From a virus: a stretch of DNA of 47,797 nucleotides. Below are positions 15,489 through 46,809 of the stretch, piece by piece (the first letter of the stretch is position 1; each line of letters opens with the position of its first letter). The notes beneath the pieces were generated by a model. That model did not search any database, was not told the origin of the DNA, and worked only from the letters and a program-made list of their open reading frames with translations. The position numbers and the translations under genes were made by a program. Location: UHGV virus genome UHGV-0368429; one strand, written 5' to 3'.

Positions 15489-15971
15489 ATGAAAGTGAAA
15501 AAATACGGTTTGGTCTTATTAGGTGTGCTGTTTATTTCAGGTTGTGCCCCCCAAAATCAGAACAACAATTTACAAAAACAATACGCTGACTTAGCAAAGT
15601 GTGAAGATAACATCACGATGCCAAAACAAATGCCGCAAAGTAAAAAGGAGTTTGCGGAGTTTTTATCCAAGGCTGCGCTTAGTGCCTCGGCAGATCAGTT
15701 TGTTACCCAGAAGCGTATAGAAATTCTGCAATTAGTTGGGTGGGATAATTCAGTAGCTGATGCAATAACGACATGTGGAGCTACCAGAAAGAGCAAGCTA
15801 AAAGATATTGGGTCGAATGTGTTTGAAACGATGAAAGCAAACACTAAAGATACAGAAGAGCGTCGCGCTCTTGTTGAGGCTTATAGTTCGTGGGAGGCTT
15901 ATGTAACCAGCCAAACTCCGCTCGCAAAACAGGACTTTGACTCTAAAGTTAGCTATTACAAAAACATGTAA
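15489..15971 (+). CDS. AT-rich moron: predicted lipoprotein of unknown function inserted between I and J
   Basis: Signal peptide with lipobox MKVKKYGLVLLGVLFISG|C; AAGGAG SD; visibly lower GC than flanking tail genes; start uncertain (ATG 15489 or GTG 15495). Confidence 0.6.
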   Translation: MKVKKYGLVLLGVLFISGCAPQNQNNNLQKQYADLAKCEDNITMPKQMPQSKKEFAEFLSKAALSASADQFVTQKRIEILQLVGWDNSVADAITTCGATRKSKLKDIGSNVFETMKANTKDTEERRALVEAYSSWEAYVTSQTPLAKQDFDSKVSYYKNM

Positions 15972-16000
15972 TAAAACGCCATCATTAATACTAACAATTA

Positions 16001-16024
16001 ACCCAGCTCAGGCTGGGTTTTTTA
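16001..16024 (+). terminator. Rho-independent terminator after the I-J moron
   Basis: ACCCAGC-TCAG-GCTGGGT followed by TTTTT, just before the J start. Confidence 0.6.
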
Positions 16025-16035
16025 ATGGGGTAAAA

Positions 16036-19000
16036 ATGCAACTTCTCCATGGTGAAACCATCATTCAGGGTGCTAAAGGGGGCGGTGGGAGCGCGCATAC
16101 TCCGGTTGAGCAACCTGACGATTTGCTGTCGGTCGCAAAATTAAAAATGCTCATTGCCGTTTCTGAGGGGGAAATACAGGGCGACCTGACCGCACAGAAC
16201 ATTTTTCTCAACGATACGCCGCTTGCAAACGACAGCGGGGAATACAACTTCAGCGGCGTGAAATGGGAATTCCGGAAGGGCACACAGGACCAGACCTATA
16301 TTGCCGGGATGCCCCAGGTCGATAACGAGCTGGCGGTTGGCACAACTGTCACCACCACCGCGCCATGGACGCGCCAGTTTACCAACCTTTCCCTGGATGC
16401 CATCCGCATCAAGCTCAGCCTTCCGGTCCAGTATCTCTATAAAGATAACGGCGATATGGTGGGCACGGTCACCGAGTATGCGATCGATTTATCAACGGAT
16501 GGCGGCGCCTGGAAAACGGTTGTAAACGGCAAGTTTGACGGAAAGACCACGACGGAATATCAGCGTGACCACCGTATTGATCTGCCAAAATCCACGTCCG
16601 GCTGGTCTGTCAGGGTCAGGCGTATTACGGCTGATGCCAGCGGATCAAATTCGAAACTGGTTAACGCCTTCAAGGTGTTTTCGTATGCGGAAGTCATCGA
16701 CAGCAAGCTTCGTTATCCTTTAACCGCGCTCCTGTATGTCGAAGTGGACAGCAGCCAGTTCAACGGCAGCGCGCCGAAAGTGACCTGTAAGATAAAAGGC
16801 AAGCTGATTAAGGTTCCGGATAATTACGATCCGATAACCCGAACCTATTCTGGTTCATGGTCCGGCGGGTTCAAAATGGCCTGGTCCAATAACCCTGCCT
16901 GGATCTTTTACGATCTGGTTCTGGATGAAATTTACGGCATGGGCACGCGCGTGGATGCGTACATGGTGGATAAGTGGGCGCTGTATTCAATTGCACAGTA
17001 TTGCGACGAAATGGTTTCCGACGGCGCCGGTGGTACCGAACCGCGTTTCACCTGCAACGTTTTCATTCAGAGCCAGGAGGACGCCTGGCAGGTACTTAAC
17101 GATCTCGCCGCGGTATTTCGTGGAATAACGTTCTGGGGCAACGATCAGATTTATGTCCAGGCAGACGTCCCGCAGGACGATGTTGACTGGGTTTATAACG
17201 CCTCAAACGTTATCGATGGGCTGTTTACTTATGCGGGCGGCTCATACAAGAATCGCTACAGCTCCTGCCTCGTGTCCTGGTCCGATCCGCAGAACCATTA
17301 CAGCGATACCGTTGAGGGAGTCTACGATTCAGAGCTTGTAGAGCGTTACGACGTCAGGCAAACGTCCCTGACCGCAATCGGCTGCACCTCGCAAAGTGAA
17401 GCGCACCGGCGCGGTCGCTGGGTATTACTCTCCAATGCCAAAGACGGGACCGTATCGTTTGGGGTGGGGCTGGACGGCTATATTCCTCTGCCCGCTGAAA
17501 TTATCGGTGTCGCCGATCCTTTCCGTTCCGGAAAGGAGAACGGGGGCCGCATAGTGGCGGTCAATGGCCGCCAGATTACGCTGGATCGAGAAATAGATTA
17601 CGCAGCGAAAGACCGGCTGGTGGTTAACCTGCCCGACGGAAAAGCCCAGACGCGGACAATCAGCGCGGTGAGCGCCGATAAAATAACGGTGACGGTGGCT
17701 ACGGCCTTCAGTCAGGCACCTGCCGCTGGTGCTGTCTGGGCGATAGACAGTGATAACCTCGCGATACAGTACTTCCGGGTCACTTCAATCGCGGCCAACG
17801 ATGACAGCACAGGCGGTTTCACAATTACGGCCGTTCAGCACGATCCAAACAAATACCGTTACATCGATGACGGCGTTCGGATCGAGTCGCCCCCGATCAC
17901 CGTCACGCCGATAAGCGTCCTGTCTGCGCCGAAGAATATCGTGGTGACTGAGAGCGATCATGTGTCTCAGGGTCTGACGGTAGCAAGCCTTGACGTGTCA
18001 TGGGACAAGGTTGAGGGCGCAATCCGGTACGTTGCCCAGTGGCGCAAGGATAACGGGGACTGGATCAACGTTCCGGTTACCAGCGCGCAGGGGTTCTCGG
18101 TTCAGGGCATTTATTCAGGCAGCTATGATGTGCGCGTCCGGGCGCTGAATGCGCAGGATACGTCGTCACCATGGGGATACGCCGAAACAACGTACCTTTC
18201 CGGAAAAACGGGAAAACCGGGTACCCCGCTCAACTTCCTGGCGACCGAAGATGTGGTCTGGCATATCGATCTGACCTGGAAATTTCCGGATGGCTCAGGC
18301 GACACGGCCTATACAGAGATTCAGCGCGCCACAACCTCTGACTACGCCAATCCTGAACTGCTGGTCCTGGTGCCGTACCCGGCTGCAGATTATCAGCATG
18401 GCCCCATGCCTGCTGGCGTTCGCCAGTGGTACCGCGCGCGCCTGATTGACCGTATCGGTAATGTCGGTGACTGGACCGACTGGGTCATGGGCACGTCCTC
18501 GATAGATGTCAGCGAAATAACCAATGACATTCTGGAGGACATGAAAGATTCCGACACGTTCAAAGACCTGATCGAGAACGCGGTGGACAGCAATGAAAAA
18601 GTTGCAGGCATGGCGGATGACATCAAAAAGCATGCCGACGAGCTGGAGCAGCAGGCGAAAGACATCCAGGAGAACGCTGACGGGCTGGCGCAGGCCGAAG
18701 TGAAGATAGACGAGATTTCAGTGTCGATGGACGGCATGACGGGAGGTGTGAAGAACTCGGCAATTGCGATAATCCAGGCCAACCTTGCTCAGGTGGCCAC
18801 GCGTAAAACTCTGTCGGCATCGGTAGCCGGTAACAGCGCACAGCTGGACCGCATTGATGAGGTGATCGTCACTGACAGGGAGGCAACGGCACGCGCATTG
18901 CTGAGCCTGCAGACGAACGTCAACGGTAATACGGCATCCATCAACAGTCTGAGCCAGACGGTTTCGAATTATCAGCAGGCCACGGCGACGCAGATCAACG

Positions 19001-19500
19001 CCATCACTGCGACCATAAACGGTAATACGGCGGCGATAACAACAAACGCCCAGGCCATTGCGAACGTAAACGGCCAGCTCAGCGCGATGTACAACATCAA
19101 GGTTGGGGTAACGAGTAATGGCCAGTATTACGCCGCAGGCATGGGGATCGGGGTGGAGAATACGCCATTAGGGATGCAGTCGCAGGTTATCTTCCTGGCC
19201 GATCGTTTTGCCGTGACTACTGCAGCCGGTAACAGCGTGGCGTTGCCGTTTGTTATTCAGAACGGGCAGACGTTCATCAGGGCCAGCTTCATTCAGGACG
19301 GTACCATTGAGAACGCTAAAATCGGCAACTTTATTCAGTCCAATAACTATGTGGCTGGATCTGTAGGCTGGAAGCTTGATAAGGGAGGAACGTTCGAAAT
19401 TAACGGTGTGGGCGGAGGTGGAAGGATGCTGATATCGAGCACTCTCATTCAAATCTACGACAGCAATAACGTGCTGCGCGTCAGAATGGGGTTATGGTAA
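16036..19500 (+). CDS. J: Tail tip / central fibre host-specificity protein gpJ
   Basis: From ATG 16036, about 1154 aa; broad similarity to lambda gpJ (e.g. ...AWSNNPAWIFYDLVLDEIYGMG..., FTITAVQHDP); C-terminal roughly 250 aa diverge from lambda. Confidence 0.9.
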   Translation: MQLLHGETIIQGAKGGGGSAHTPVEQPDDLLSVAKLKMLIAVSEGEIQGDLTAQNIFLNDTPLANDSGEYNFSGVKWEFRKGTQDQTYIAGMPQVDNELAVGTTVTTTAPWTRQFTNLSLDAIRIKLSLPVQYLYKDNGDMVGTVTEYAIDLSTDGGAWKTVVNGKFDGKTTTEYQRDHRIDLPKSTSGWSVRVRRITADASGSNSKLVNAFKVFSYAEVIDSKLRYPLTALLYVEVDSSQFNGSAPKVTCKIKGKLIKVPDNYDPITRTYSGSWSGGFKMAWSNNPAWIFYDLVLDEIYGMGTRVDAYMVDKWALYSIAQYCDEMVSDGAGGTEPRFTCNVFIQSQEDAWQVLNDLAAVFRGITFWGNDQIYVQADVPQDDVDWVYNASNVIDGLFTYAGGSYKNRYSSCLVSWSDPQNHYSDTVEGVYDSELVERYDVRQTSLTAIGCTSQSEAHRRGRWVLLSNAKDGTVSFGVGLDGYIPLPAEIIGVADPFRSGKENGGRIVAVNGRQITLDREIDYAAKDRLVVNLPDGKAQTRTISAVSADKITVTVATAFSQAPAAGAVWAIDSDNLAIQYFRVTSIAANDDSTGGFTITAVQHDPNKYRYIDDGVRIESPPITVTPISVLSAPKNIVVTESDHVSQGLTVASLDVSWDKVEGAIRYVAQWRKDNGDWINVPVTSAQGFSVQGIYSGSYDVRVRALNAQDTSSPWGYAETTYLSGKTGKPGTPLNFLATEDVVWHIDLTWKFPDGSGDTAYTEIQRATTSDYANPELLVLVPYPAADYQHGPMPAGVRQWYRARLIDRIGNVGDWTDWVMGTSSIDVSEITNDILEDMKDSDTFKDLIENAVDSNEKVAGMADDIKKHADELEQQAKDIQENADGLAQAEVKIDEISVSMDGMTGGVKNSAIAIIQANLAQVATRKTLSASVAGNSAQLDRIDEVIVTDREATARALLSLQTNVNGNTASINSLSQTVSNYQQATATQINAITATINGNTAAITTNAQAIANVNGQLSAMYNIKVGVTSNGQYYAAGMGIGVENTPLGMQSQVIFLADRFAVTTAAGNSVALPFVIQNGQTFIRASFIQDGTIENAKIGNFIQSNNYVAGSVGWKLDKGGTFEINGVGGGGRMLISSTLIQIYDSNNVLRVRMGLW

Positions 19501-19802: not shown

Positions 19803-20440
19803 GTGGATTCGAAGTTTATAACAGTGCTGGAAAATTGCTGGTTGATTCACAAAACAGATCAACACTTTTTTATGATCAGCGTGTGCTCGGCGCAGTGACT
19901 GACAAAGGACATTACCGTGTGGATAGTCCGTTCGGAAACGGAAGCACACTGGGCTTTACCCAGCCGCAGTTCTGGAATGATGGGAATTTGCGTTGGCTGC
20001 AGCTGGATACTAATAAGTATGGCTTACCAGGCGCTGACCTTCTGGAAGACAATGCGGGCAGTATGATACGCACGTCCAGAAACGTTGGAATGCAAAGCGG
20101 ATATCTGGATGTTTTCGACAGCGCGGGGAATCTTATCTGGAGCGCCGCCTCGGCATCGAAAATGCCGCGCGTGGTGGGCTTTTTCGACGTGCCGGCCAAT
20201 TACGATCTACAGAACAATACCTTTGCGGTAAACCTGAGTTTTAACCCGTGGATTCTGGTTAACAACTGCCCTGGTAACCTCAGTGACGACGGTACGGTTG
20301 TTGGTTATTCAGGAATCGTTCTCAAATGGACAGGCTCACAGCTGCAGGGGAGGTACATCACAAAAAATCAGCGCAACTGGAGCCAGACACTTCAGGGGCG
20401 AGGGCTACGAATTCCCATCGCTCAGTTTGTCGGAATTTGA
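19799..20440 (+). CDS. Hypothetical protein coupled to the preceding ORF (possible tail-tip accessory)
   Basis: ATGA overlap with upstream stop; 213 aa; contains motifs FEVYNSAGKLL and LDVFDSAGNLIW that echo the J C-terminus IQIYDSNNVLRV. Confidence 0.5.
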   Translation: MSGFEVYNSAGKLLVDSQNRSTLFYDQRVLGAVTDKGHYRVDSPFGNGSTLGFTQPQFWNDGNLRWLQLDTNKYGLPGADLLEDNAGSMIRTSRNVGMQSGYLDVFDSAGNLIWSAASASKMPRVVGFFDVPANYDLQNNTFAVNLSFNPWILVNNCPGNLSDDGTVVGYSGIVLKWTGSQLQGRYITKNQRNWSQTLQGRGLRIPIAQFVGI

Positions 20441-20767
20441 TACGGGCGGGACGCGGGGGTATTGAGTAGCGATCATGTTTTGCTTAACACCTTTTGCAGG
20501 TTCGAAGCGGTATACGACATCAAGCTTATCCGTTTTCTTATAACAGATGTTGCTGAGCCGCTTATTTATATGTCGGCTGAAAATGCCATTGCTGCTGTCT
20601 GAAATTACGTTAACTTCCCTCGTGGCACAGTCGATATTTACGTGAATATCTCCCCCCAGAGATAAGCGCGCCGCATCCACCGGGTAATCCATTCTGAAGG
20701 CATAGTCTCTGTCTTTGTCGGCACAGCCAGCCGCCAGCAAAAGTGCCACGGCAAATAATCGTTTCAT
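20405..20767 (-). CDS. Predicted lipoprotein, convergent with the tail operon (possibly a Cor-like exclusion protein; inference only)
   Basis: MKRLFAVALLLAAG|C lipobox signal; 120 aa; 3' end overlaps the preceding plus-strand ORF by 36 bp. Confidence 0.5.
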   Translation of the reverse strand: MKRLFAVALLLAAGCADKDRDYAFRMDYPVDAARLSLGGDIHVNIDCATREVNVISDSSNGIFSRHINKRLSNICYKKTDKLDVVYRFEPAKGVKQNMIATQYPRVPPVSNSDKLSDGNS

Positions 20768-20834
20768 TTCTACATTCCTGTATCTGCGGGAATATCCATT
20801 TTATTTGAGTTTAAAAAATAGTCAGATTGATATG

Positions 20835-20875
20835 AGCGATCATTTTTACATTATTGATCGCTTTAAACGATCGTT
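20835..20875. promoter_or_regulatory. Divergent intergenic region with two palindromes (candidate operator)
   Basis: AGCGATCA (20835..20842) and TGATCGCT (20855..20862) are a perfect inverted repeat; AACGATCGTT (20866..20875) is a perfect palindrome; sits between the lipoprotein start and the tail fibre start. Confidence 0.35.
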
Positions 20876-20893
20876 ATTATCGTGAGGTAGTTC

Positions 20894-22213: not shown

Positions 22214-22417
22214 ACAATACTCAGGCATCTAACAAGTAAAACGCCGCCCATCGCATGCAAGAATTTGCGGCGGCTAAAATCTGCTCATTAAGAGTTACTG
22301 CCATAAAATTTACAAAACTCATAATTCGAAACGACATAGAAACTTAGAAACGAAACGGCGAAGCTTTAAGCATTCATCACAGACCCTCTGTCTTGCGTGC
22401 ATACTCAAATGAAACTA

Positions 22418-22433
22418 CTGTATATAAAAACAG
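22418..22433. promoter_or_regulatory. LexA (SOS) box upstream of umuD
   Basis: CTGTATATAAAAACAG = CTGT-N8-ACAG with AT-rich spacer, 18 bp before the umuD ATG; identical in form to the E. coli umuDC operator. Confidence 0.85.
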
Positions 22434-22450
22434 TGTTTGAGGTATGCAAC

Positions 22451-22870
22451 ATGGAATTTATCAGGCCTGCAGAACTGCGAGAAATTATAGCTCTCCCGCT
22501 TTTCAGTGACTTAGTGCAGTGTGGTTTCCCAAGCCCAGCGGCTGATTACGTTGAACAGCGCATCGATCTCAATGAGTTACTTGTTGCTCACCCGAGCTCA
22601 ACGTATTTCGTCAAAGCCGCGGGCGATTCTATGATCGAAGCCGGGATCAGCGACGGTGATCTGCTGGTAGTGGACAGCTCCAGGACTGCTGAGCATGGTG
22701 ACATTGTCATCGCTGCGGTGGAAGGGGAGTTCACTGTTAAACGCCTGCAGCTGCGCCCGAACGTGCAACTAAACCCTATGAACAGCGCCTACAGTCCGAT
22801 AGTTATTGGCTGCGAAGATACGCTGGACGTTTTCGGCGTCGTGACTTTCATCGTTAAATCGGCGAGCTGA
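22451..22870 (+). CDS. umuD: UmuD-like error-prone polymerase accessory subunit (S24 peptidase)
   Basis: [45 protein letters not shown]...KAAGDSM... closely matches E. coli UmuD as recalled. Confidence 0.9.
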
Positions 22871-22872
22871 AC

Positions 22873-24141
22873 ATGTTCGCGCTCTGTGATGTGAATTCGT
22901 TCTACGCATCATGCGAGACGGTGTTTCGGCCTGATTTGAGGGGGCGCCCGGTTGTCGTTCTCTCGAATAATGATGGCTGCGTAATTGCGCGCAGCGCCGA
23001 GGCCAAAGCCGCCGGAATTACCATGGGTGAGCCTTTCTTCAAGCAAAAGGAGCTTTTCCGGCGCGCTGGCGTTGTTTGCTTCAGCAGCAATTACGAGCTG
23101 TACGCTGATATGTCGAACCGGGTAATGACGACGCTGGAAGAAATGAGCCCTCGCGTCGAAATATATAGCATCGATGAAGCTTTTTGCGACCTTACTGGTG
23201 TTCGAAACTGCCGGGACCTGACAGAGTTTGGCAAAGAGATCCGCGCGACGGTTCTGAAGCGTACGCACCTGACTGTCGGGATTGGCATCGCGAAAAGTAA
23301 GACCCTTGCAAAGCTGGCAAATCACGCCGCCAAAAAATGGCAGCGTCAGACGGGCGGAGTTGTTGATTTGTCCAATATCGATCGCCAGCGTCGGTTGTTG
23401 GCTATTGTGCCTGTGGAGGACGTATGGGGCGTCGGCAGGCGCATCAGTAAGAAGCTGAACGCCATGGGCATCAAAACGGCTCTGGACCTCTCAGAACAAA
23501 GCACATGGATTATCCGTAAACACTTTAACGTGGTACTCGAGCGAACGGTCCGGGAGTTGCGCGGCGAGCCTTGTCTTGATCTGGAGGAGTTTGCACCAGC
23601 TAAGCAGGAAATCGTCTGCAGTCGGTCATTCGGTGAACGCGTTACCGAATACGAACAGATGCGGCAGGCTATTTGCAGCTATGCGGCGCGTGGTGCTGAA
23701 AAGCTTCGCGGCGAACATCAGTATTGCCGTTTTATCTCTGCGTTCGTGAAGACGTCACCTTTTGCCCTGAACGAGCCGTATTACGGCAACAGCGCGTCAG
23801 TGAAGCTTCTCACCCCCACTCAGGATTCCCGCGACATCATCAACGCCGCGGTAAAGTGCCTGGACAAAATCTGGAAGGATGGGCACCGCTATCAAAAGGC
23901 TGGAATTATGCTGGGAGATTTTTTCAGTCAAGGGGTGGCACAGCTGAACCTTTTCGATGAGCACGCGCCGCGCGCTGGAAGCGATAAGTTGATGGATGTG
24001 CTCGATCACTTGAACGCGAAAGAAGGGAAAGGAACACTCTTCTTTGCCGGGCAGGGCATTCAACAGCAGTGGCAGATGAAGCGGCAGTTGCTTTCACCCC
24101 GATATACTACTCGCATATCAGATTTATTAATTGTGAAGTAA
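22873..24141 (+). CDS. umuC: UmuC-like Y-family translesion DNA polymerase (Pol V catalytic subunit)
   Basis: 422 aa; [41 protein letters not shown]... is the Y-family N-terminus; immediately follows umuD. Confidence 0.9.
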
Positions 24142-25459: not shown

Positions 25460-26131
25460 TTAAGTTATTATTTCTATTAGATTTTTACCTTGATTTCTGG
25501 CGTTTCCAACCGCGCGTGTAACAGCGTGCCAGATAAACTTGTCGGCAGGCACTGCGCCGTCGGCTGCTATCTCTTCAGCTTCTTTCCCGCCTATATCCTG
25601 ACGTATCCACTCGCGAGCCGCTTCCGGTGACAGAACCAGTGGCCGGCGATCGTGAATATCGACCAGACCTTTATCAGCTGCAGATGTCACGATGAGAAAA
25701 CCTTCAGCTTCGTCTCCACGCTCAAATGGTGTGCTGCCGATAGCCGCCATAAATATTGGCTGGCCGTCGGCCCGGTGAATGAAGTAGGGCTGTTTCTTGT
25801 CTGCTTCCTTCTTCCATTCGAACCAGCCATCCGCAAAGCAGATCGCCCGGCCATGTTGCCAGAGAGGCTTGAACATTCGGCTGGTGGCCGCCGTCTCGAC
25901 GCGTGCGTTAATCAGTGGCGGTTTATCCCACCACTCGGGCGCGTAAGACCACAGGACTGGATCAAGATGCAGCTGCTCGTTGCGTTCGCTCAGGAGCAGC
26001 ACCTTGGTACCGGGCGAGACGTTGTACCGGCCTATAGGTTCCGGGTCATACGCAATGTCACGATCGGCTTCATCGGCCAAGTATGCCAGATATTCTTCAC
26101 GGGTTTGGGCTTGTGCAAAACGTCCACACAC
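25460..26131 (-). CDS. yedK: SOS-response-associated peptidase (SRAP; YedK/HMCES family abasic-site processing protein)
   Basis: 223 aa starting MCGRFAQAQTREEYLAYLADEADRDIAYDPEPIGRYNVSPGTKVLLLSERNEQLHLDPVLWSYAPEWWDKPPLINARVETAATSRMFKP..., matching E. coli YedK with the catalytic Cys2. Confidence 0.85.
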   Translation of the reverse strand: MCGRFAQAQTREEYLAYLADEADRDIAYDPEPIGRYNVSPGTKVLLLSERNEQLHLDPVLWSYAPEWWDKPPLINARVETAATSRMFKPLWQHGRAICFADGWFEWKKEADKKQPYFIHRADGQPIFMAAIGSTPFERGDEAEGFLIVTSAADKGLVDIHDRRPLVLSPEAAREWIRQDIGGKEAEEIAADGAVPADKFIWHAVTRAVGNARNQGKNLIEIIT

Positions 26132-36033: not shown

Positions 36034-36886
36034 ATTAACGGGTTACGTTTGGGACGCTTGTGCCGCTTCTGGCATGAAGCTGTCCAGCGTTGCCATCATG
36101 GCGCGTCTGGCAGACTTCAGCAGTGATGAAGGGGTTAGCTGGCCTTCCATCGCTACCATCGCGCGCCAGATTGGTGCCGGTGAGAGCACGGTTCGAACAG
36201 CCATATCTCAACTGGAAAAAGACGGGTGGTTAACCCGCCAGCAGCGCCGTAAAGGCAACCGCAATGCATCGAACGTTTACCAGCTCAATGTTGCGAAATT
36301 ACAGGCTGCTGCCTTTTCTCACCTGTCAGATTCTGACGCATCAAAATCTGATGCCTCAAAAACCGACGCGTCAAAATCTGAGGCATCAAAAAACGATGAA
36401 AAAGACGGTTTTCACCCGTCAGAATCTGGGGGGGATCCGTCAGTAAATACAACTACTGATCCATCAGATAAAAAACATTCTTGTCCGGTTGCTGCGCAAC
36501 CCGACCCTGTGGTGGTTATCACCGATCAGGCGAAGCAGGTTTTATCACATCTGAACAAGACCACCGGATCACGGTATCAGGTCTGCAAATCGTCCTTGGA
36601 AAACATCCGGGCTCGCCTGGCTGACGGGTTTACGCCCGATGAGCTGCTGTTGGTGGTGGATTACAGCGTCGAGAAGTGGGGCGAAGATCTGAAAATGGCC
36701 GAATATCTGCGCCCAACAACGTTGTTTTTGCCATCTAAATTCCCAGGTTACCTGCAATCCGCAAATAAGTGGAACGCAGCAGGACGCCCAGAACGACAGT
36801 ACTGGGGCTCAATTCGTAAGCATGATCCGATGAAATTTGGTGGGCCAGATAAAGCCATCCCAGCTGGCTTCAGGGGAGCGAAATGA
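36023..36886 (+). CDS. Replication initiator (lambda O-like replisome organiser)
   Basis: 287 aa; N-terminal winged-helix-like region; central repetitive linker encoded by the iterons; occupies the lambda O position. Confidence 0.65.
   Translation: MSTKLTGYVWDACAASGMKLSSVAIMARLADFSSDEGVSWPSIATIARQIGAGESTVRTAISQLEKDGWLTRQQRRKGNRNASNVYQLNVAKLQAAAFSHLSDSDASKSDASKTDASKSEASKNDEKDGFHPSESGGDPSVNTTTDPSDKKHSCPVAAQPDPVVVITDQAKQVLSHLNKTTGSRYQVCKSSLENIRARLADGFTPDELLLVVDYSVEKWGEDLKMAEYLRPTTLFLPSKFPGYLQSANKWNAAGRPERQYWGSIRKHDPMKFGGPDKAIPAGFRGAK
36335..36400 (+). repeat. Four 15-bp direct repeats (candidate ori iterons) inside the O-like gene
   Basis: TCAAAA[TA]C[TC]GA-type units starting at 36341, 36356, 36371 and 36386 with exact 15-bp period; flanked by palindrome GTCAGATTCTGAC; encode (DASKS)n. 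Confidence 0.5.
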
Positions 36887-37782
36887 TGAGCATGAATGCT
36901 GATAACAAATATTGCCGCGCGCTGGCTGAACTGCGCTCAAAGCCAGCGCATGAATTGAAAGAAGTTGGCGATCAGTGGCGCACTCCGGATTTGTTGTTTT
37001 GGGGCATCAATTCGATATTTGGGCCGATGGTTCTGGATCTGTTTGCAGACGATAGCAATACTAAATGCCCTGCATGGTACACCGCCGAAGATAACGCGCT
37101 GACGCAGGACTGGTCAGAGCGTCTGGCAGAACTCGGTGGCGCCGCGTTTGCAAATCCGCCATATAGCCGTTCTCAGTACCATGAAAAGCAGGCCATCACT
37201 GGCATGACCCACATCATGAATCACACAATGGCGATGCGTGATAAAGGTGGTCGTTACATATACCTCGTGAAGTCAGCCACAAGTGAAACATGGTGGCCGG
37301 AAGATGCCGATCACATCATGTTTATTCGTGGTCGTATTGGGTTCGATCTTCCTATTTGGTTTGTTCCCGCTGACGAGAAGCAGCAACCCACCAGCGCATT
37401 TTTTGCCGGGGCAATCGCTGTCTTCGACAAAACCTGGCGTGGTGAAAGCTTCAGCTATATCAATCGCACCGAACTGGAAGAAAAAGGGCGTGCAGCATTG
37501 TCATTGGCTCAATTCGCCGCGGCAAAAATGGCCCTTTCGTCGGTGCCGGAAAAAGCAATGCCTACTCCCATTGCAACGGCTGATGCAGAGTCGCGCATCT
37601 GGCCGCTGGAGGTTGGTCTGGTATTCAATCAGGTCAAGGGGGCGGATTCTCTGGGCGTGAACCAACAGAACAAGTTGAAGGCCAACATCAACCAACTCTG
37701 GCTGGAGCGTGTGCCTACCAGCGAAATAATTAGCGTGGCCGGTGGTCTGGTTAGCAGCATGCAGGGGGCCGTCAATGCGTGA
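36883..37782 (+). CDS. DNA N6-adenine methyltransferase (phage Dam-like)
   Basis: 299 aa with NPPY motif (…AAFANPPYSRSQ…); start overlaps the O-like stop (ATGA). Confidence 0.75.
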   Translation: MMSMNADNKYCRALAELRSKPAHELKEVGDQWRTPDLLFWGINSIFGPMVLDLFADDSNTKCPAWYTAEDNALTQDWSERLAELGGAAFANPPYSRSQYHEKQAITGMTHIMNHTMAMRDKGGRYIYLVKSATSETWWPEDADHIMFIRGRIGFDLPIWFVPADEKQQPTSAFFAGAIAVFDKTWRGESFSYINRTELEEKGRAALSLAQFAAAKMALSSVPEKAMPTPIATADAESRIWPLEVGLVFNQVKGADSLGVNQQNKLKANINQLWLERVPTSEIISVAGGLVSSMQGAVNA

Positions 37783-39712
37783 AATCATCGTTGATAACTT
37801 TGCCGGTGGTGGCGGCGCGAGTACCGGCATTGAACTGGCCATCGGGCGTAGCGTGGATATCGCTATCAACCACGACGAAAACGCTATTGCGATGCATAAG
37901 ACGAATCACCCGGACACGCTGCATTATTGCGAGTCGGTGTTTGACGTTGACCCAAGCGCAGCCACCAGCGGTAAACCTGTCGGTCTGGCCTGGTTTAGCC
38001 CTGACTGTCGCCACTTTTCCAAAGCGAAGGGCGCTAAGCCGGTTAAGAAAGAGATTCGCGGGCTGGCGTGGATTGTCCTGCGCTGGGCGCTGGCAGTACG
38101 TCCCCGCGTCATGATGCTGGAGAACGTCGAAGAATTTAAGACATGGGGACCGCTGCTGGATGAAGAATTACGCCCGGATCCTGAGCGTGCAGGTGAAACA
38201 TTCGAGGCATTTGTCGGCATGTTGTCGACTGGTATCGCGGCGAATCACCCAGCACTGGCTGAGGTTTGTGAATTTCTTGCCATTGAGCCGCACGGCCAGC
38301 AGGCGCAACAGCTGATCGCCGGGCTTGGCTATGAGGTCGATTATCGTGAGCTGCGCGCTTGTGACTACGGCGCGCCGACGATCAGAAAGCGTTTCTTCAT
38401 GGTCATGCGCTGTGACGGCCGCAAGATTCATTGGCCTGAAGCGACTCATGGGGATCCAAAATCACTGGAAGTACAAAGCGGCAAGCTGGCGCCATGGCGT
38501 ACCGCGGCGGAGTGCATTGACTGGAATATCCCGGCCCGGTCCATCTTCGACCGCAAAAAGCCGCTGGCGGAAAATACGCTCAAACGTATCGCACGCGGCA
38601 TCCAGCGCTTTGTTATCGAAAGCGCATCACCTTTCATCGTGAAGTGTAACCACACCACGACGAAAGGAGGTTATGACTGTTTCCGCGGGCAATCGTTGTT
38701 AGAGCCATTGCAGACCATCACTAAAAAGCATGGCTACGCGCTGGCCGTACCGCATCTTACTAAATTCCGCACCGGGGCCACCGGGCAGCCAGTGACCGAG
38801 CCAGTTCCAACTGTCACCGCTGGTACGTCGGCGCGCCCGGGCGGGAATGGGCATGCGCTTGGCGTAGTTGAGGCCGCCCTGACACCGTTCCTGGCTGGCA
38901 ATGGCGGCAGTGAGTACCAGGCAAAGCCGCGCCCACTGGATAAACCCGCTCATACAATCCTCAAGCAGTCCCGCGCGTGCGTGGTTGCGCCGGTCATCGC
39001 CCGCCAGTTTGGCGCCAGTGTTGGGCATAGGGCTGACGAACCTAGCGCAACGATTACTGCAGGTGGTGGCGGTAAGTCGCAGCTGGTAACTCCAACACTG
39101 ATCCAGATGGGGTACGGCGAACGCCCAGGGCAAGAACCGCGTGTTCTTCAACTGAATAACCCGCTCGGCACGGTCACTGCTGGTGGTAATAAGTTTGCAA
39201 CGGTGAGCGCGTTCCTGGCGAAGCACTATGGTGGGAATTACACGGGGCCGGGTGTTGGTATGGATGAGCCTGCCCACTCAGTCACTACTGTTGATCATCA
39301 CGCGGTAGTTGCGTCGCACCTGGTGAAGCTGCGCGGAACCTGCCGCGACGGTCAGACCATGGATACACCTATGCCGACGATTACCGCTGGTGGCCAGCAT
39401 GTTGGTGAGGTCCGGACATTCCTCGAAACCTACTGCGGTGATAGCGAGGATGAATGGCTGGTGACGATCGAGGGGGTTAAGTACCAGATCGTCGATATCG
39501 GAATGCGCATGCTGCAACCGCATGAGCTTTATAAGGCACAGGGCTTCCCTGACGGCTACGTTATCGATCAGGACTATCGCGGCAATCGTTACGCCAAAGA
39601 CAAGCAGGTAGCGCGCTGCGGTAACGCAGTACCGCCGCCGTTCGCTCGTGCGCTGGTAGAAGCAAATCTTCCTGAATTATGTGCAAATCAAAAGGCGGGT
39701 GCAGCCGCCTGA
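37775..39712 (+). CDS. DNA cytosine-5 methyltransferase with extended repeat-containing variable region (candidate multispecific)
   Basis: From ATG 37775: FAGGGG (motif I), SPDC (motif IV), ENV (motif VI), RKRFFMV (motif VIII), C-terminal GNAVPPPFARAL (motif X); between VIII and X five repeats of the T-[IV]-T-A-G-G type. Confidence 0.8.
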   Translation: MREIIVDNFAGGGGASTGIELAIGRSVDIAINHDENAIAMHKTNHPDTLHYCESVFDVDPSAATSGKPVGLAWFSPDCRHFSKAKGAKPVKKEIRGLAWIVLRWALAVRPRVMMLENVEEFKTWGPLLDEELRPDPERAGETFEAFVGMLSTGIAANHPALAEVCEFLAIEPHGQQAQQLIAGLGYEVDYRELRACDYGAPTIRKRFFMVMRCDGRKIHWPEATHGDPKSLEVQSGKLAPWRTAAECIDWNIPARSIFDRKKPLAENTLKRIARGIQRFVIESASPFIVKCNHTTTKGGYDCFRGQSLLEPLQTITKKHGYALAVPHLTKFRTGATGQPVTEPVPTVTAGTSARPGGNGHALGVVEAALTPFLAGNGGSEYQAKPRPLDKPAHTILKQSRACVVAPVIARQFGASVGHRADEPSATITAGGGGKSQLVTPTLIQMGYGERPGQEPRVLQLNNPLGTVTAGGNKFATVSAFLAKHYGGNYTGPGVGMDEPAHSVTTVDHHAVVASHLVKLRGTCRDGQTMDTPMPTITAGGQHVGEVRTFLETYCGDSEDEWLVTIEGVKYQIVDIGMRMLQPHELYKAQGFPDGYVIDQDYRGNRYAKDKQVARCGNAVPPPFARALVEANLPELCANQKAGAAA

Positions 39713-42731: not shown

Positions 42732-43784
42732 ATGAAAAATACTGTAAATATAAACAGTGTTGAGCTTGTCAACGCTGACTGCCTGCAATACCTCGCAACC
42801 CTCCCAGATAACACCATCGACCTTATTGTTACGGATCCGCCTTATTTTAAGGTGAAGCCGAACGGCTGGGATAATCAGTGGAATGGTGACGCCGACTATC
42901 TTCGCTGGCTTGATATGTGTCTTGCCCAGTTCTGGCGAGTGCTTAAGCCTGCCGGCAGCCTGTATTTGTTTTCAGGTCACCGACTTGCATCCCATATTGA
43001 GATCATGATGCGTGAACGCTTCAACGTCATGAACCACATTATCTGGGCGAAGCCATCAGGGCGCTGGAACGGGTGTAATAAAGAAAGCCTGCGCTCTTAC
43101 TTTCCCGCGACGGAACGCATCCTTTTCGCTGAGCATTATCAGGGGCCATATAAGCCGAAAAGCGACGGATTTGCTGAGAAAAGCAACGAGGTCAAACAGC
43201 ACGTCATGGCTCCGTTAATCACCTACTTTCGGGAAGCACGAGCCGAACTGGGGGTCACGTCCAGGCAAATAGCTGACGCCACCGGAAAGAAAAATATGGC
43301 GTCTCACTGGTTCGGTGCCAGTCAGTGGCAACTACCGAACGAGCAGGATTACGAAAAGCTGCAGGAATTGTTCACTCAGATCGCCATTGAGAAGCACCGC
43401 GCCTCTGAACTCAAAGCACCGCATCACCAGCTGGTGGCCACATGGCATTCGTTGAACCGGAAATACCTTGATCTGCTGGAAGAGTACAAATCTCTTCGGC
43501 GGCATTTCTCTGTGACAGTAGCCGTGCCCTATACAGACGTCTGGACACATAAACCCGTCCAGTTCTATCCAGGCAAACACCCGTGCGAAAAGCCCGCTGA
43601 TATGTTGCGGCAAATCATCAACGCCAGCAGCAGGCCCGGCGATGTGGTAGCTGATTTCTTTATGGGCTCGGGATCAACTGTTAAAGCAGCCATTGAACTG
43701 GGCCGCCAGGCTATCGGCGTAGAACTGGAAGAGGAACGTTTCAACCAGACGGTAAGTGAGGTAAGGCAGCTGGCAGGGGAATAA
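42732..43784 (+). CDS. DNA methyltransferase, DPPY class (N6-adenine or N4-cytosine)
   Basis: 350 aa; motif order ...IDLIVTDPPYF... (catalytic) before ...FFMGSGST... (SAM-binding) is beta-class. Confidence 0.8.
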   Translation: MKNTVNINSVELVNADCLQYLATLPDNTIDLIVTDPPYFKVKPNGWDNQWNGDADYLRWLDMCLAQFWRVLKPAGSLYLFSGHRLASHIEIMMRERFNVMNHIIWAKPSGRWNGCNKESLRSYFPATERILFAEHYQGPYKPKSDGFAEKSNEVKQHVMAPLITYFREARAELGVTSRQIADATGKKNMASHWFGASQWQLPNEQDYEKLQELFTQIAIEKHRASELKAPHHQLVATWHSLNRKYLDLLEEYKSLRRHFSVTVAVPYTDVWTHKPVQFYPGKHPCEKPADMLRQIINASSRPGDVVADFFMGSGSTVKAAIELGRQAIGVELEEERFNQTVSEVRQLAGE

Positions 43785-45274: not shown

Positions 45275-46063
45275 ATGGAAGAACGTCATCACAGCTATAT
45301 CCTTAAAACTATTGAAGAAATAGGAAGGGGTGGGTTCGGTTACGTTGAAAAAATTGAACTTTTCAATGTTAACGGTCACAAATGCGGTGACTACGCCAAA
45401 AAGATTTTGGCGCAGGATCATGGGCTTAGCAAAGAGGACTTCAAAAGAAGATTCAAACGGGAAGTGGATTATCAGGCTAGGTGTACGCACTCGAATATAG
45501 CGCCTATATATCTACACAATCTTCAGGTTGATAGTCCTTGGTTTGTTATGGATCTCGCTGAAAGTGATTTAAGTACAGATTTAGCCTCAGGCACGCTCGA
45601 TAATGCAAGCAAAATGCATATTGCAGAAATGATCCTTTCAGGGGTACGTTTCATGCATACAGAGAAAACTAATGATCCAGGACGTAAGCCAGTATATTTA
45701 CACCGTGATTTAAAGCCATCTAATATTCTTCGTTTTAAAGATGGAGTTTACAAAATTTCCGATTTTGGTTTAGTAAAAAATGCAGGAAAAGAAAGACCAG
45801 AATCTGAGCTTTTAACAAGAGTCGCTACAGCCATGGGAACGCTCAAATACATGGCTCCTGAGATAACAACAGCTGGGCATTACTCAGAGCAAACTGACAT
45901 TTTTGCTCTCGGAGTAGTTATTGATGATATGGGGTTTGATAACGTTAATGGTATTAGACAGTTAATCGATAAATGCACCGCCTGGAGAGCTGCAAGCCGA
46001 TACAAATCGGTTGATGATATGATGCAGGAACTGGCTGATATAAAAATAAGGAATGGGCTATGA
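45275..46063 (+). CDS. Hanks-type Ser/Thr protein kinase (AT-rich moron)
   Basis: 262 aa with GRGGFGYV (P-loop), YAKK (Lys), HRDLKPSN (catalytic loop), SDFG, APE. Confidence 0.85.
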   Translation: MEERHHSYILKTIEEIGRGGFGYVEKIELFNVNGHKCGDYAKKILAQDHGLSKEDFKRRFKREVDYQARCTHSNIAPIYLHNLQVDSPWFVMDLAESDLSTDLASGTLDNASKMHIAEMILSGVRFMHTEKTNDPGRKPVYLHRDLKPSNILRFKDGVYKISDFGLVKNAGKERPESELLTRVATAMGTLKYMAPEITTAGHYSEQTDIFALGVVIDDMGFDNVNGIRQLIDKCTAWRAASRYKSVDDMMQELADIKIRNGL

Positions 46064-46809
46064 TTACCCTACTTTCAAGTGGTCTTTTCTCTTACGCTAA
46101 AAGTTCTTCGCGTACTAATCAGGATTCTATTCTTGCTCCACAGTGCATCGATAATGGCTATTTGATTGCTGTCGCTGATGGCGTTGGCTCGTACTTGGGC
46201 GCAGAACACGCTTCACAAACAGCAATTAAATATTTAGCGAACCTAATCAATGCTTCTTCTATCCAAGATCTTGATAGCCTCTTCGCCACAATAAAAGAAA
46301 AGATTTCTGCGTTATCTGACGCTGATGAATCCTATTTAGAAGCTGCAACGACGTTGACGTTTGCATATGTAAACAATCAAGGTTTGTACATTGGTCATGT
46401 TGGTGATTGTCGTTTGTATATTAAAAAAGATAATAAACTCAAACAACTAACGAAAGATCATACCCAACATCAAAAACTGTTGGATCAGAAGATTTTCAAT
46501 AAAAAAGAACTTAAGGATATGGGGGGGAAAAACACCCTAACAACTGCGATTTCTAAAGTTATCCCATTGGAATTTCAACAAACGTTTATTCCTGCGTCTG
46601 AAGTTTTCGAAGACAACGAAGAGGCCACTCTCTACATTCTTTCAGATGGAGCACACCACTTCTGGGATAAGAGACCAAGATTCTCAATCACTACTTTGAG
46701 CAATCCAAACTGTTTTGCAGCTAGCTTGCATAAACGAATTATTCGTAATGGGCCTATAGATGATTTTTCTTTGGTTGTAGCCAAGTTCAAGCGCAGCAGT
46801 GTTAACTAA
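46060..46809 (+). CDS. PP2C-family Ser/Thr protein phosphatase (AT-rich moron, coupled to the kinase)
   Basis: 249 aa; metal-binding motifs VADGVGS, HVGDCRLY, ILSDGAHH; ATGA overlap with the kinase stop. Confidence 0.75.
   Translation: MITLLSSGLFSYAKSSSRTNQDSILAPQCIDNGYLIAVADGVGSYLGAEHASQTAIKYLANLINASSIQDLDSLFATIKEKISALSDADESYLEAATTLTFAYVNNQGLYIGHVGDCRLYIKKDNKLKQLTKDHTQHQKLLDQKIFNKKELKDMGGKNTLTTAISKVIPLEFQQTFIPASEVFEDNEEATLYILSDGAHHFWDKRPRFSITTLSNPNCFAASLHKRIIRNGPIDDFSLVVAKFKRSSVN

Follow-up and report, generated by a model that had tools for sequence, protein, structure and literature searches.

The virulent phages IME347 and IsaakIselin (Bas10) use the TonB-dependent transporter YncD, and the choice of receptor can be predicted from the allelic receptor-binding protein (RBP) loci found downstream of gpJ and from the exclusion genes cognate to them (PMC8594841); that the RBP loci downstream of gpJ predict the receptor is also reported in a preprint (10.64898/2026.04.02.716166). 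YncD is now named PqqU, and the trio of IsaakIselin consists of RBP-1 (QXV80560), RBP-2 (QXV80561) and SIP-1 (QXV80559), of which AlphaFold2 set the first two on the outer face of PqqU and the third on its periplasmic face; the likeness of SIP-1 to the C terminus of TonB has already been remarked (PMC12124388). The lipoproteins Llp of T5, directed at FhuA, and Rtp45, directed at LptDE, are also encoded beside an RBP gene, and, bound to the receptor on its periplasmic side, they keep the RBP from attaching at the cell exterior (PMC9586334; 10.1101/2025.07.07.663478). As for methylation-dependent control, P22 gtr has GATC pairs 13 bp apart inside OxyR half-sites (PMC2909390), and in opvAB the half-sites lie 32 bp apart, the spacing canonical for reduced OxyR, with OBSD and OBSC centred at -43 and -75 (PMC4856963). 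Here we analyse a lipoprotein gene, which we call sip, and the divergent 126-bp intergenic region between it and the side tail fibre gene (stf) in the virus genome UHGV-0368429; the window is this whole stretch of 47,797 nt, and all coordinates count from its first letter.

According to our analysis, the best explanation of the whole locus, to which we give a probability of roughly 0.6, is a SIP-1-like exclusion lipoprotein joined to a Dam/OxyR-controlled divergent promoter region that serves the exclusion gene, the fibre gene or both. The features on which this reading is built are collected in Table 1.

The lipoprotein gene and its product

As an earlier reading made from the sequence alone (hereafter the sequence-only reading) had proposed, a lipoprotein open reading frame (ORF) lies directly after the tail-tip genes on the opposite strand, in a convergent arrangement. 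Its product of 120 residues begins with MKRLFAVALLLAAG followed by the lipobox cysteine, and the 3' ends of sip and of the gene for a 213-residue protein overlap by 36 nt. In BLASTP the product is 31% identical to SIP-1 of IsaakIselin over 80 residues (E = 3e-14), and tblastn against phage genomes recovered relatives of 32-42% identity in virulent T1-like phages (Drexlerviridae), namely TH30, IME347, NBD2, PHB17, Bas11 and several Klebsiella phages. Aligned with these counterparts, the sip product shows shared motifs that include YPV(D/E)A(A/S)R and two cysteines. On sequence grounds we deem it a homologue of SIP-1, the superinfection-blocking protein predicted for the PqqU/YncD-type module. 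In the AlphaFold2 model of the sip product, residues 28-90 form a confident core (pLDDT 83-94), the best structural matches of which are all TonB C-terminal domains, so that the core is modelled as a TonB C-terminal domain; a profile of the sip family also met FusB among Protein Data Bank (PDB) sequences at E = 0.0076, with the YP...G.V.V..D motif aligned.

The setting of the gene is that of the SIP-1 family, in that sip neighbours homologues of RBP-1 and RBP-2 next to a gpJ-like gene and its product combines an N-terminal export signal with a TonB-C-like fold. The 213-residue protein is 47% identical to IsaakIselin RBP-1 over its full length (E = 5e-68), is matched in phage genomes with 43-49% identity and 100% coverage by proteins of IME347, Henu7, NBD2, IsaakIselin (Bas10) and Bas11 (tblastn), and has homologues that are matched by PF28254 (DUF8377). 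The smaller protein of 102 residues is 38% identical to RBP-2 (E = 8e-20) and matches phrog_7961. The C-terminal 499 residues of the gpJ-like protein are 36% identical to J of IsaakIselin, through the last residue; relatives carry the annotation central tail fibre or host specificity protein, and its homologues are matched by the Pfam families Phage-tail_3 and FNIII-A_GpJ. The virulent T1-like phages have, next to the J-like gene, three genes that run in one direction. The order J, RBP-2, RBP-1, inverted lipoprotein gene and fibre gene is also found in prophages of E. coli, Enterobacter and Franconibacter, and the local gene order of the window is the same in the closest records, the Escherichia phages LLS (96%), Flotzy, Eeyore, HK639, LMessi and CharmingMan.

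The signal sequence satisfies the PROSITE lipobox rule, with K or R near the N terminus, an uncharged h-region and L-A-A-G-C ending in Cys15, and among 26 aligned homologues C15 is invariant and G14 nearly so. Under the established +2 rule of lipoprotein sorting, the alanine at this position predicts sorting to the outer membrane. The ORF is kept in all seven phages with 83-98% amino acid identity, which answers the doubt that the gene might lack conservation, and a search of 5.8 billion proteins gave 53 homologous clusters, all of them from Enterobacteriaceae (Escherichia, Enterobacter, Klebsiella, Kosakonia and Franconibacter) and all unnamed. In comparisons with HK639-type copies, the synonymous differences per site (pS) are saturated at 0.67-0.71, the nonsynonymous ones (pN) amount to 0.08-0.09 and dN/dS is 0.04-0.06; sip is under strong purifying selection. 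Its sequence and conservation argue that it is a real, conserved gene for an exported lipoprotein. Only 3 of 5426 complete E. coli genomes have the locus, which makes it rare there. In the GenBank record of HK639 (HM208537.1, 23535-23897; L002, 4106-4468) the lipoprotein gene is left unannotated and a 159-nt plus-strand ORF, HK639_26, is annotated antisense inside it; the minus-strand ORF is intact there and 84% identical to the window protein.

Family databases were of little help, since searches of the lipoprotein and its two neighbours against Pfam, NCBIfam and PADLOC gave nothing above threshold, the NCBIfam TonB model scoring the sip product at 13.4 bits against a cut-off of 265, and PHROGs returned families of unknown function only. 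We nevertheless hold it highly probable that the sip product is a SIP-1-type, TonB-like exclusion lipoprotein. Exclusion is the best-supported reading of its function, and we infer both this function and PqqU as the receptor from the homology and the synteny described above. The protein is a lipid-anchored, prophage-adapted version of the recently predicted SIP-1/TonB-mimic class, and this version is new.

A different role for the same protein is improbable in our view, be it that of a general TonB antagonist, another conversion function such as protection against colicins or other TonB-dependent phages, or that of a helper in adsorption that belongs to the RBP module. A TonB C-terminal-domain fold could engage any TonB box, and exclusion by the sip product is itself a model-based prediction; the published model, however, puts SIP-1 specifically on PqqU, the gene co-varies and is strictly linked with PqqU-type RBP genes in virulent and temperate phages, and the analogous FhuA and LptD loci carry exclusion lipoproteins that are receptor-specific. 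Co-transcription with the RBP genes in virulent phages would suit an accessory of adsorption, but an exported lipoprotein cannot be a cytoplasmic virion assembly factor.

The sequence-only reading had likened the position and type of the lipoprotein to Cor-like exclusion proteins. The genomic slot is indeed that of cor, because the gene order in HK022 is J, a 100-residue gene, a 212-residue gene, cor and stf, and the N terminus of HK022 stf is nearly identical to that of the window; both products are moreover lipoproteins of outer-membrane type. Membership of the family is another matter. A search for the Cor, Lom and Bor families gave no Pfam match, and BLASTP against HK022 Cor ended at E = 3.6, with lengths of 120 and 77 residues. 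With neighbouring RBP genes of YncD rather than FhuA type, and with a TonB-C-like fold, we rejected a Cor-family, FhuA-blocking identity, to which we attach next to no weight. We propose by analogy that the sip product works like Cor, Llp and Rtp45 without belonging to any of these families.

Conservation of the intergenic region

The palindromes that had been noted in front of the fibre gene are there as described: a perfect 8-bp inverted repeat, AGCGATCA (20835-42) and TGATCGCT (20855-62), with a 12-nt gap, and the perfect 10-bp palindrome AACGATCGTT at 20866-75, upstream of the fibre gene ATG at 20894. Each palindromic element contains one GATC, at 20838, 20856 and 20869. On composition alone these palindromes are only modestly unusual: in 5000 dinucleotide-preserving shuffles of the 126-nt region, an inverted repeat of at least 8 nt arose in 4.6%, a 10-nt palindrome in 20%, both together in 1.1% and at least three GATCs in 4.4%. 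GATC occurs once per 219 bp in the window, taken by itself the cluster does not reach significance across the window, and CGATCRWT outside the cluster stays at the chance level in the window. The sole other triplet of GATCs within 40 nt in the window (22633-22661, spacing 12/13) lies inside the umuD-like coding sequence.

Conservation, not composition, is the real evidence for intergenic elements. The intergenic p-distance to HK639-type relatives is 0.056-0.071, and in the same comparisons pS reaches the values given above for sip, 0.80-0.82 for the upstream RBP-1 gene and 0.47-0.55 for the first 150 nt of stf, which makes the intergenic region about 10 times more conserved than the flanking synonymous sites. 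Against a copy whose protein is 64% identical, the intergenic difference is 23% and the flanking pS 0.65-0.77. We read these 126 bp between the divergent genes as a control region under dense constraint. Across 48 distinct related intergenic sequences the palindromes are kept, and the blocks CGATCAAT, ATTGATCG, CGATCG, ATCAATCTGACT and TAAAAT as well as both Shine-Dalgarno regions are invariant, while short stretches between them show three or four different bases. Most relatives have longer dyad arms, (A)GCGATCAAT-N8-ATTGATCGC(T), which a T-for-A change has shortened in the window. The expectation that relatives would share the palindromes thus held for these sequences and failed in lineages where an unrelated region lies upstream.

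In one such lineage, type B, a 122-residue variant of the lipoprotein that is 75-82% identical (L059, L061 2492-2860, L066 and about 12 more IMG/VR loci), the upstream region contains a bidirectional terminator-like hairpin, AAAAAACCCCGCCGGAGCGAGG, and the upstream neighbour is a different one, a gene for 389 residues on the opposite strand. Because this upstream region differs, the exclusion gene is wired to at least two control regions.

A role of the inverted repeat at the RNA level, as a hairpin that the late transcript forms just before the fibre gene, is very improbable, whether in processing, stability, translational control or as a weak terminator. The plus-strand RNA of 20826-20893 does fold with a 9-bp stem at -15.6 kcal/mol, and a terminator-like hairpin is called at 20855-20873, but z is only -1.8 and 12 of 200 shuffles fold as well. 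The arms are invariant, hence show no covariation, and their outermost positions vary one-sidedly and uncompensated (G/A/T opposite C/T); one relative has a 4-nt insertion in the loop, and the first of the two half-sites described below and the third GATC, which are equally conserved, lie outside the hairpin. Rfam gave no match for the inverted-repeat region. A second, smaller hairpin (AUUCC...GGAAU) is predicted in the 5' untranslated region (UTR) of sip, with a fold of -5.5 kcal/mol and z = -2.2; its stem ATTCC/GGAAT is kept in most related intergenic sequences and its loop varies, which is weak evidence that it may sequester the Shine-Dalgarno sequence.

A GATC-laden OxyR-type site

The view of the palindromes as operator-like agrees with their conservation, with the amendment that they are better read as one bipartite, GATC-laden OxyR-type site than as separate operators. 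The two arms of the inverted repeat correspond to the facing edges of the half-sites, 3' for half-site 1 and 5' for half-site 2, and the 10-bp palindrome to the distal edge of half-site 2. When the window was scanned with the half-site consensus ATAGnTnnnAnCTAT, 15 of 47,783 positions scored at least 8/10, among them 20826 and 20857, which are 31 bp apart; 8/10 is the highest score possible for a half-site bounded by two GATCs. In a bipartite score for two OxyR half-sites 31 or 32 bp apart (maximum 20), the pair 20826/20857 reaches 16, the next best in the window 13 and the maximum of 40 dinucleotide-shuffled windows 15. Known sites scored in the same manner give 16 for agn43 (spacing 32) and 14 for Mu mom (spacing 31). 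All 48 distinct relatives have a site of 14-16/20 at the same place, where the positions of the half-site consensus (ATCG, A10, C12 and the terminal AAT/GAT) are invariant or nearly so and positions 5, 7, 8, 9 and 11 vary freely.

The GATC spacing is 18/13 in the window, 18/13 in Mu mom (NC_000929) and 19/13 in agn43 (MG1655). The agn43 site reads CGATCAAT...ATCGATCGTTTATATCGATCG in MG1655 and the Mu mom site CGATCGAATCAATTAAATCGATCGGTAATACAGATCG in NC_000929, and the window has the words CGATCAAT and CGATCGTTTA in common with agn43. OxyR reportedly represses mom on unmethylated DNA only, and reduced OxyR is said to make extended contacts at mom and oxyRS (Bolker and Kahmann 1989; Toledano et al. 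1994; Hattman and Sun 1997). A canonical contiguous OxyR site, with half-sites spaced 22 bp, was considered and rejected, as it scores 13/20 only and leaves the conserved blocks unexplained, whereas the extended 31/32-bp register explains them. Operators of CI/Cro type were likewise rejected, since the dyad with up to three mismatches has no other credible copy in the window.

That the palindromes are a Dam-sensitive OxyR-type operator seems to us slightly better than an even bet, and OxyR binding, as well as the sign and the target of the regulation, is what we infer from the match of the motif. The window site is best explained, by its sequence, as a new instance and a new arrangement of the known type of Dam/OxyR switch. 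We find it unlikely that the palindromes are a real operator for some protein other than OxyR, which might be another LysR-type protein, a GATC-reading host factor or a conserved phage regulator, and for which methylation may or may not matter. The OxyR consensus does not account for the full conservation of the dyad CGATCAAT-N8-ATTGATCG, LysR-type boxes in general have the form ATC-N9-GAT, and HdfR is described as another methylation-sensitive LysR-type regulator (PMC6735912). However, the number and spacing of the GATCs and their position in the half-sites match Mu mom and agn43, with comparable scores; the dyad lacks the second copy in the window that CI/Cro operators would have; and the motif recurs, among the matches listed, in Mu-like, P2-like and lambdoid phages with unrelated repressors, which points to a host factor.

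Occurrence of the motif in other phages

The IMG/VR database was scanned for CGATC-N14-GATCGnTnnnAnnGATC, and matches were obtained in at least 120 stretches of DNA. Those listed comprise the present family, Mu-like mom regions and many unrelated AT-rich intergenic instances. Among them, 15 independent unrelated clusters could be compared at the eleven positions upstream of the first CGATC, which lie outside the search pattern: these positions read as the first OxyR half-site (ATxGxTxxxAx), with A in 12/15, T in 12/15, G in 10/15, T in 13/15 and A in 12/15. The neighbours of the motif among the matches listed include com/mom, a dam-like methyltransferase, a lipoprotein, a family-25 glycosyltransferase (lipopolysaccharide [LPS] glycosyltransferase), an EAL protein and umuD-like genes, so that its sequence context gives it the look of a portable cassette for the control of accessory genes. 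The window site belongs to a recurrent sequence class, two studied members of which bind OxyR in a methylation-sensitive manner.

Several individual instances deserve mention. The motif stands about 25 nt before the start of a phage dam-like methyltransferase gene and, elsewhere, directly upstream of umuD-like genes, of another phage lipoprotein gene (MKIITLVITLMLTAC...) and of the genes for a family-25 glycosyltransferase and an EAL-domain protein; loci at which it lies by accessory genes are L115 1253-1288 (minus strand), L162 6898, L109 1418, L153 9524-9571, L124 8314 and L128 107. In P2-like prophages it occupies the gap between G (tail-fibre assembly) and FI (tail sheath), as in L108 4735-4770 and also in L104, L120, L130, L147, L149 and L122. 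There it reads ATGGTTATCAGCGATCAAT-N8-ATTGATCGCTGATAACGATC, with both half-sites at 8/10, some 110-130 nt upstream of the FI start, which may point to methylation/OxyR control, either close to the late promoter P_F or acting on a moron that has escaped annotation.

Promoter-like sites and proposed mechanism

Promoter-like sites were found for both divergent genes. The -35 and -10 hexamers of the sip site are invariant or nearly so in the 48 distinct related sequences, the sole variant of the -10 being TAGAAT; a promoter-like site of its own is, as far as the sequence allows, what a prophage-expressed gene (a moron) needs. At the candidate fibre promoter, the -35 is kept in nearly all relatives, and the -10 keeps A2, A5 and T6 and varies at positions 3-4. 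This candidate is fully overlapped by the OxyR-type site. The sequence-only reading had suggested regulated rather than purely read-through late expression of the fibre; such regulation is possible because the conserved palindromes overlap the plus-strand promoter-like site. Since the OxyR-type site lies just upstream of the sip promoter-like site, the regulated gene may be sip, the fibre gene or both.

In the mechanism that we propose, sip would be expressed from its own sigma-70-type promoter in the lysogen and probably also during infection. The product, once exported and lipidated at Cys15, would reach the outer membrane and reside in its inner leaflet, where its TonB-like core could dock on the periplasmic face or on the TonB box of PqqU. 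Docking may freeze the extracellular loops needed by RBP-1 and RBP-2, in the manner of Llp on FhuA and Rtp45 on LptD, or it may deny access to TonB. With the receptor locked or masked, phages using the same receptor would be excluded from the lysogen or the infected cell; a block of PqqU would also stop high-affinity import of pyrroloquinoline quinone (PQQ), which would be the cost. In virulent relatives the sip counterpart is co-transcribed with the RBP genes, and here inversion of the gene, along with gain of the lipobox and the promoter, would have adapted it to expression from the prophage.

As to control, the predicted sip start near 20791 would place the OxyR-type half-sites around -42 and -73. 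OxyR would bind the site only when the GATCs are unmethylated, and bound OxyR could shut the fibre promoter and modulate sip, much as at the divergent oxyR/oxyS pair, so that the candidate fibre promoter could be kept shut in the lysogen. Full methylation, by host Dam or by the phage Dam-family enzyme after induction, would remove OxyR. Like agn43, the window has a single site with three GATCs, so that heritable ON and OFF states are conceivable, and sip expression could be methylation-dependent and possibly phase-variable. The window has only two half-sites, and any bistability would therefore follow the logic of agn43.

Several points weigh against this reading as a whole. The role of SIP-1 itself rests on a published AlphaFold2 complex model of the IsaakIselin protein; a literature search found no report of a receptor or of this lipoprotein for HK639 or LLS; and the sip product did not reach the curated threshold of Pfam TonB_C (PF03544), nor did any Pfam family match it at E <= 0.1. 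The OxyR consensus is not strict, and a CGATCG-type Dam site brings ATCG/CGAT elements with it, which inflates matches. The half-sites are spaced 31 bp rather than the canonical 32, a spacing that Mu mom also has by the same assignment, and the conserved CAAT...ATTG just inside the half-sites is left unexplained by the OxyR consensus, so that another protein, for example of LysR type, may bind. The site is absent where the same lipoprotein gene has an unrelated upstream region (type B, Enterobacter mori and Franconibacter), these regions being free of GATC and having bipartite scores of at most 13. The promoters and transcription start sites are predictions. Finally, ORF-based counts of orientation in other viral instances among the matches listed, about 8 downstream and about 4 divergent, do not indicate which gene is controlled.

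If the reading holds, the pairing of an RBP module with a cognate exclusion protein would extend from virulent T1-like to temperate lambdoid phages, PqqU/YncD would be the predicted receptor of HK639-type phages, and the locus would offer a clear case of a host energy-transducer domain, the C terminus of TonB, turned into a receptor-masking lipoprotein. A bolder extension, which we put forward tentatively and consider rather doubtful, is that exclusion is epigenetically switched: the Dam/OxyR site would make the lipid-anchored TonB mimic bistable or dependent on lytic growth, lysogens splitting into PqqU-masked cells, resistant to phages and without PQQ import, and open cells, and ATnGnTnnnAn followed by CGATC-N14-GATCGnTnnnAnnGATC would recur widely among enterobacterial phages of Mu-like, P2-like and lambdoid type as a control element for tail and accessory genes that has so far escaped cataloguing. 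Such a switch would add a fourth class of genes to the loci under Dam/OxyR control (mom, agn43, gtr and opvAB) and would tie DNA-methylation epigenetics to phage receptor availability and cofactor uptake in a bet-hedging trade-off. The motif is usable for mining phage and prophage genomes for methylation-controlled accessory genes.

Genomic setting

By its gene content the window is a complete lambdoid temperate phage, with head and tail genes, the gpJ-like gene, an integrase, a CI-like repressor, a CII-like protein, a Q antiterminator and a lysozyme. The side tail fibre ends in a C-terminal Peptidase_S74 chaperone and begins with a conserved tail-attachment part, an N terminus that HK97, HK022 and the mEp phages share. 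Its distal part is mosaic (pN 0.5-0.7 past codon 150), and the N terminus and upstream control region stay conserved. In the closest relative, LLS (L001 5095-7044), an invertible tail-fibre tip segment and a Fin invertase lie downstream of the same fibre N terminus, whereas the window has a single fibre gene with the Peptidase_S74 C terminus.

Three DNA methyltransferase genes were detected (36883-39712 and 42732-43784), encoding a Dam-family enzyme (PF05869), a 656-residue protein with a C-5 cytosine methylase domain and an N6_N4 methylase. Homologues of the Dam-family enzyme in SfV, SfII and cdtI are annotated dam, and the enzyme could, judging by its family, methylate the three intergenic GATCs during lytic growth. 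Among the 40 matches listed for it, homologues are present in LLS, Eeyore and Flotzy and absent for HK639, LMessi and CharmingMan, and within these matches there is no strict linkage between the OxyR-type site and a phage Dam gene.

Two further groups of genes were observed. The fibre gene is followed on the same strand by umuD/umuC-like genes (22397-24141), with a gene for an SOS-response-associated peptidase (SRAP) nearby (25460-26131), and near the lysis region (45275-46809) adjoining genes encode a eukaryotic-type Ser/Thr protein kinase (262 residues) and a PP2C phosphatase (249 residues), a pair unusual for a lambdoid phage.

Table 1. Features of the sip locus and related genes in the window (UHGV-0368429)
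Feature	Coordinates	Strand	Basis or remark
gpJ-like central tail fibre (tail tip) gene	15937..19500	+	ORF list; the receptor-binding module comes next
RBP-2-like small protein, 102 aa	19494..19802	+	Homology to IsaakIselin QXV80561
RBP-1-like putative receptor-binding protein, PqqU/YncD type, 213 aa	19799..20440	+	Homology to IsaakIselin QXV80560
sip, SIP-1-like outer-membrane lipoprotein, putative superinfection-exclusion factor, 120 aa	20405..20767	-	Homology to QXV80559
TonB C-terminal-domain-like core, residues 28-90	20498..20686	-	YP motif; two conserved Cys (C47 nearly invariant, C75 invariant)
Signal peptide with lipobox, MKRLFAVALLLAAG then C; predicted lipidation at Cys15	20723..20767	-	Sequence
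Small hairpin in predicted sip 5' UTR, pairs with Shine-Dalgarno AGGAA	20774..20793	-	RNA fold
sip promoter-like site: -35 CTGACT (20825-20820), 16 nt, -10 TAAAAT (20803-20798)	20798..20825	-	Consensus scan
OxyR-type half-site 1, ATTGATATGAGCGAT, 8/10 against ATAGnTnnnAnCTAT	20826..20840		3' end holds GATC-I (20838-41)
Candidate fibre promoter: -35 TTGATA, 16 nt, -10 CATTAT	20827..20854	+	Consensus scan
Palindromes: inner edges of the two half-sites and distal edge of half-site 2	20835..20875		Sequence
OxyR-type half-site 2, ATCGCTTTAAACGAT, 8/10	20857..20871		Bounded by GATC-II (20856-59) and GATC-III (20869-72), 13 bp apart
Side tail fibre gene (stf), 439 aa	20894..22213	+	Pfam, PHROGs; Shine-Dalgarno GAGG at 20885-88
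Dam-family adenine methyltransferase gene	36883..37782	+	Pfam PF05869 Dam, E = 9e-45

Comparison with known systems

The nearest described relatives of the sip product are SIP-1 of IsaakIselin and its counterparts in IME347, Bas11 and TH30, with which it has in common a homologous sequence, RBP-1/RBP-2 partners next to gpJ, an export signal and a TonB-C-like fold; the placement of IsaakIselin SIP-1 on the periplasmic face of PqqU/YncD is a prediction, to which the sip product is likened by homology. The differences concern the protein, the gene and the carrier. The SIP-1 proteins of Drexlerviridae have a plain signal peptide without cysteine, whereas the sip product has the lipobox Cys15 and, unlike IsaakIselin SIP-1, a proline-rich C-terminal tail of 15-20 residues. 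The virulent phages have the gene after RBP-1 and on its strand; sip is inverted in the window, as in prophages of E. coli, Enterobacter mori and Franconibacter, and a tail-to-tail overlap with RBP-1 is seen in the window and in the E. coli copies. Unlike the SIP-1 gene of virulent phages, sip in the window has its own promoter-like site and an upstream operator-like site, and it is carried by a temperate lambdoid phage instead of a virulent T1-like one.

TonB of E. coli and FusB of Pectobacterium share the YP...G.V.V..D motif with the sip product, and TonB binds the TonB box of TonB-dependent transporters. In contrast to TonB, the sip product is without the proline-rich spacer and the inner-membrane anchor, in place of which it has an outer-membrane lipid anchor; lacking both, it cannot transduce energy.

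Cor of HK022, phi80, N15 and T1 resembles the sip product as a small lipoprotein of outer-membrane type whose gene has the small gpJ-distal genes on one side and the side tail fibre gene on the other. It is a moron expressed from the prophage that blocks the phage's own receptor, and by analogy the same is proposed for sip. Sequence similarity between the two is undetectable, the sizes differ, Cor goes with FhuA and sip with a PqqU/YncD module, and cor is co-directional with the tail genes whereas sip is inverted. Llp and Rtp45 have unrelated small folds of about 6-7 kDa, and neither has been described as a TonB mimic; their mechanism was solved by structures, whereas that of sip is deduced from models and homology.

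Among the switches, the Mu mom region is alike in having three GATCs spaced 18/13 and two half-sites 31 bp apart upstream of the promoter of a phage accessory gene. At mom OxyR binds unmethylated DNA only and represses, and by analogy binding is predicted in the window. The window site differs in lying in a divergent region, in its reversed orientation relative to the sip promoter and in abutting the -35 of sip, the mom site being located further upstream of its promoter; the window also gave no evidence of a C-like activator. The sites of agn43 (flu), P22 gtr and opvAB likewise have GATCs embedded in OxyR half-sites (ATCGnTnnnAnCGAT). The half-sites of opvAB at -43/-75 resemble those predicted at -42/-73 for sip, whereas the agn43 site, unlike that of the window, lies downstream of the transcription start. 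Both gtr and opvAB have three or four half-sites with alternative occupancy, and the window has two, forming a single site like that of agn43.

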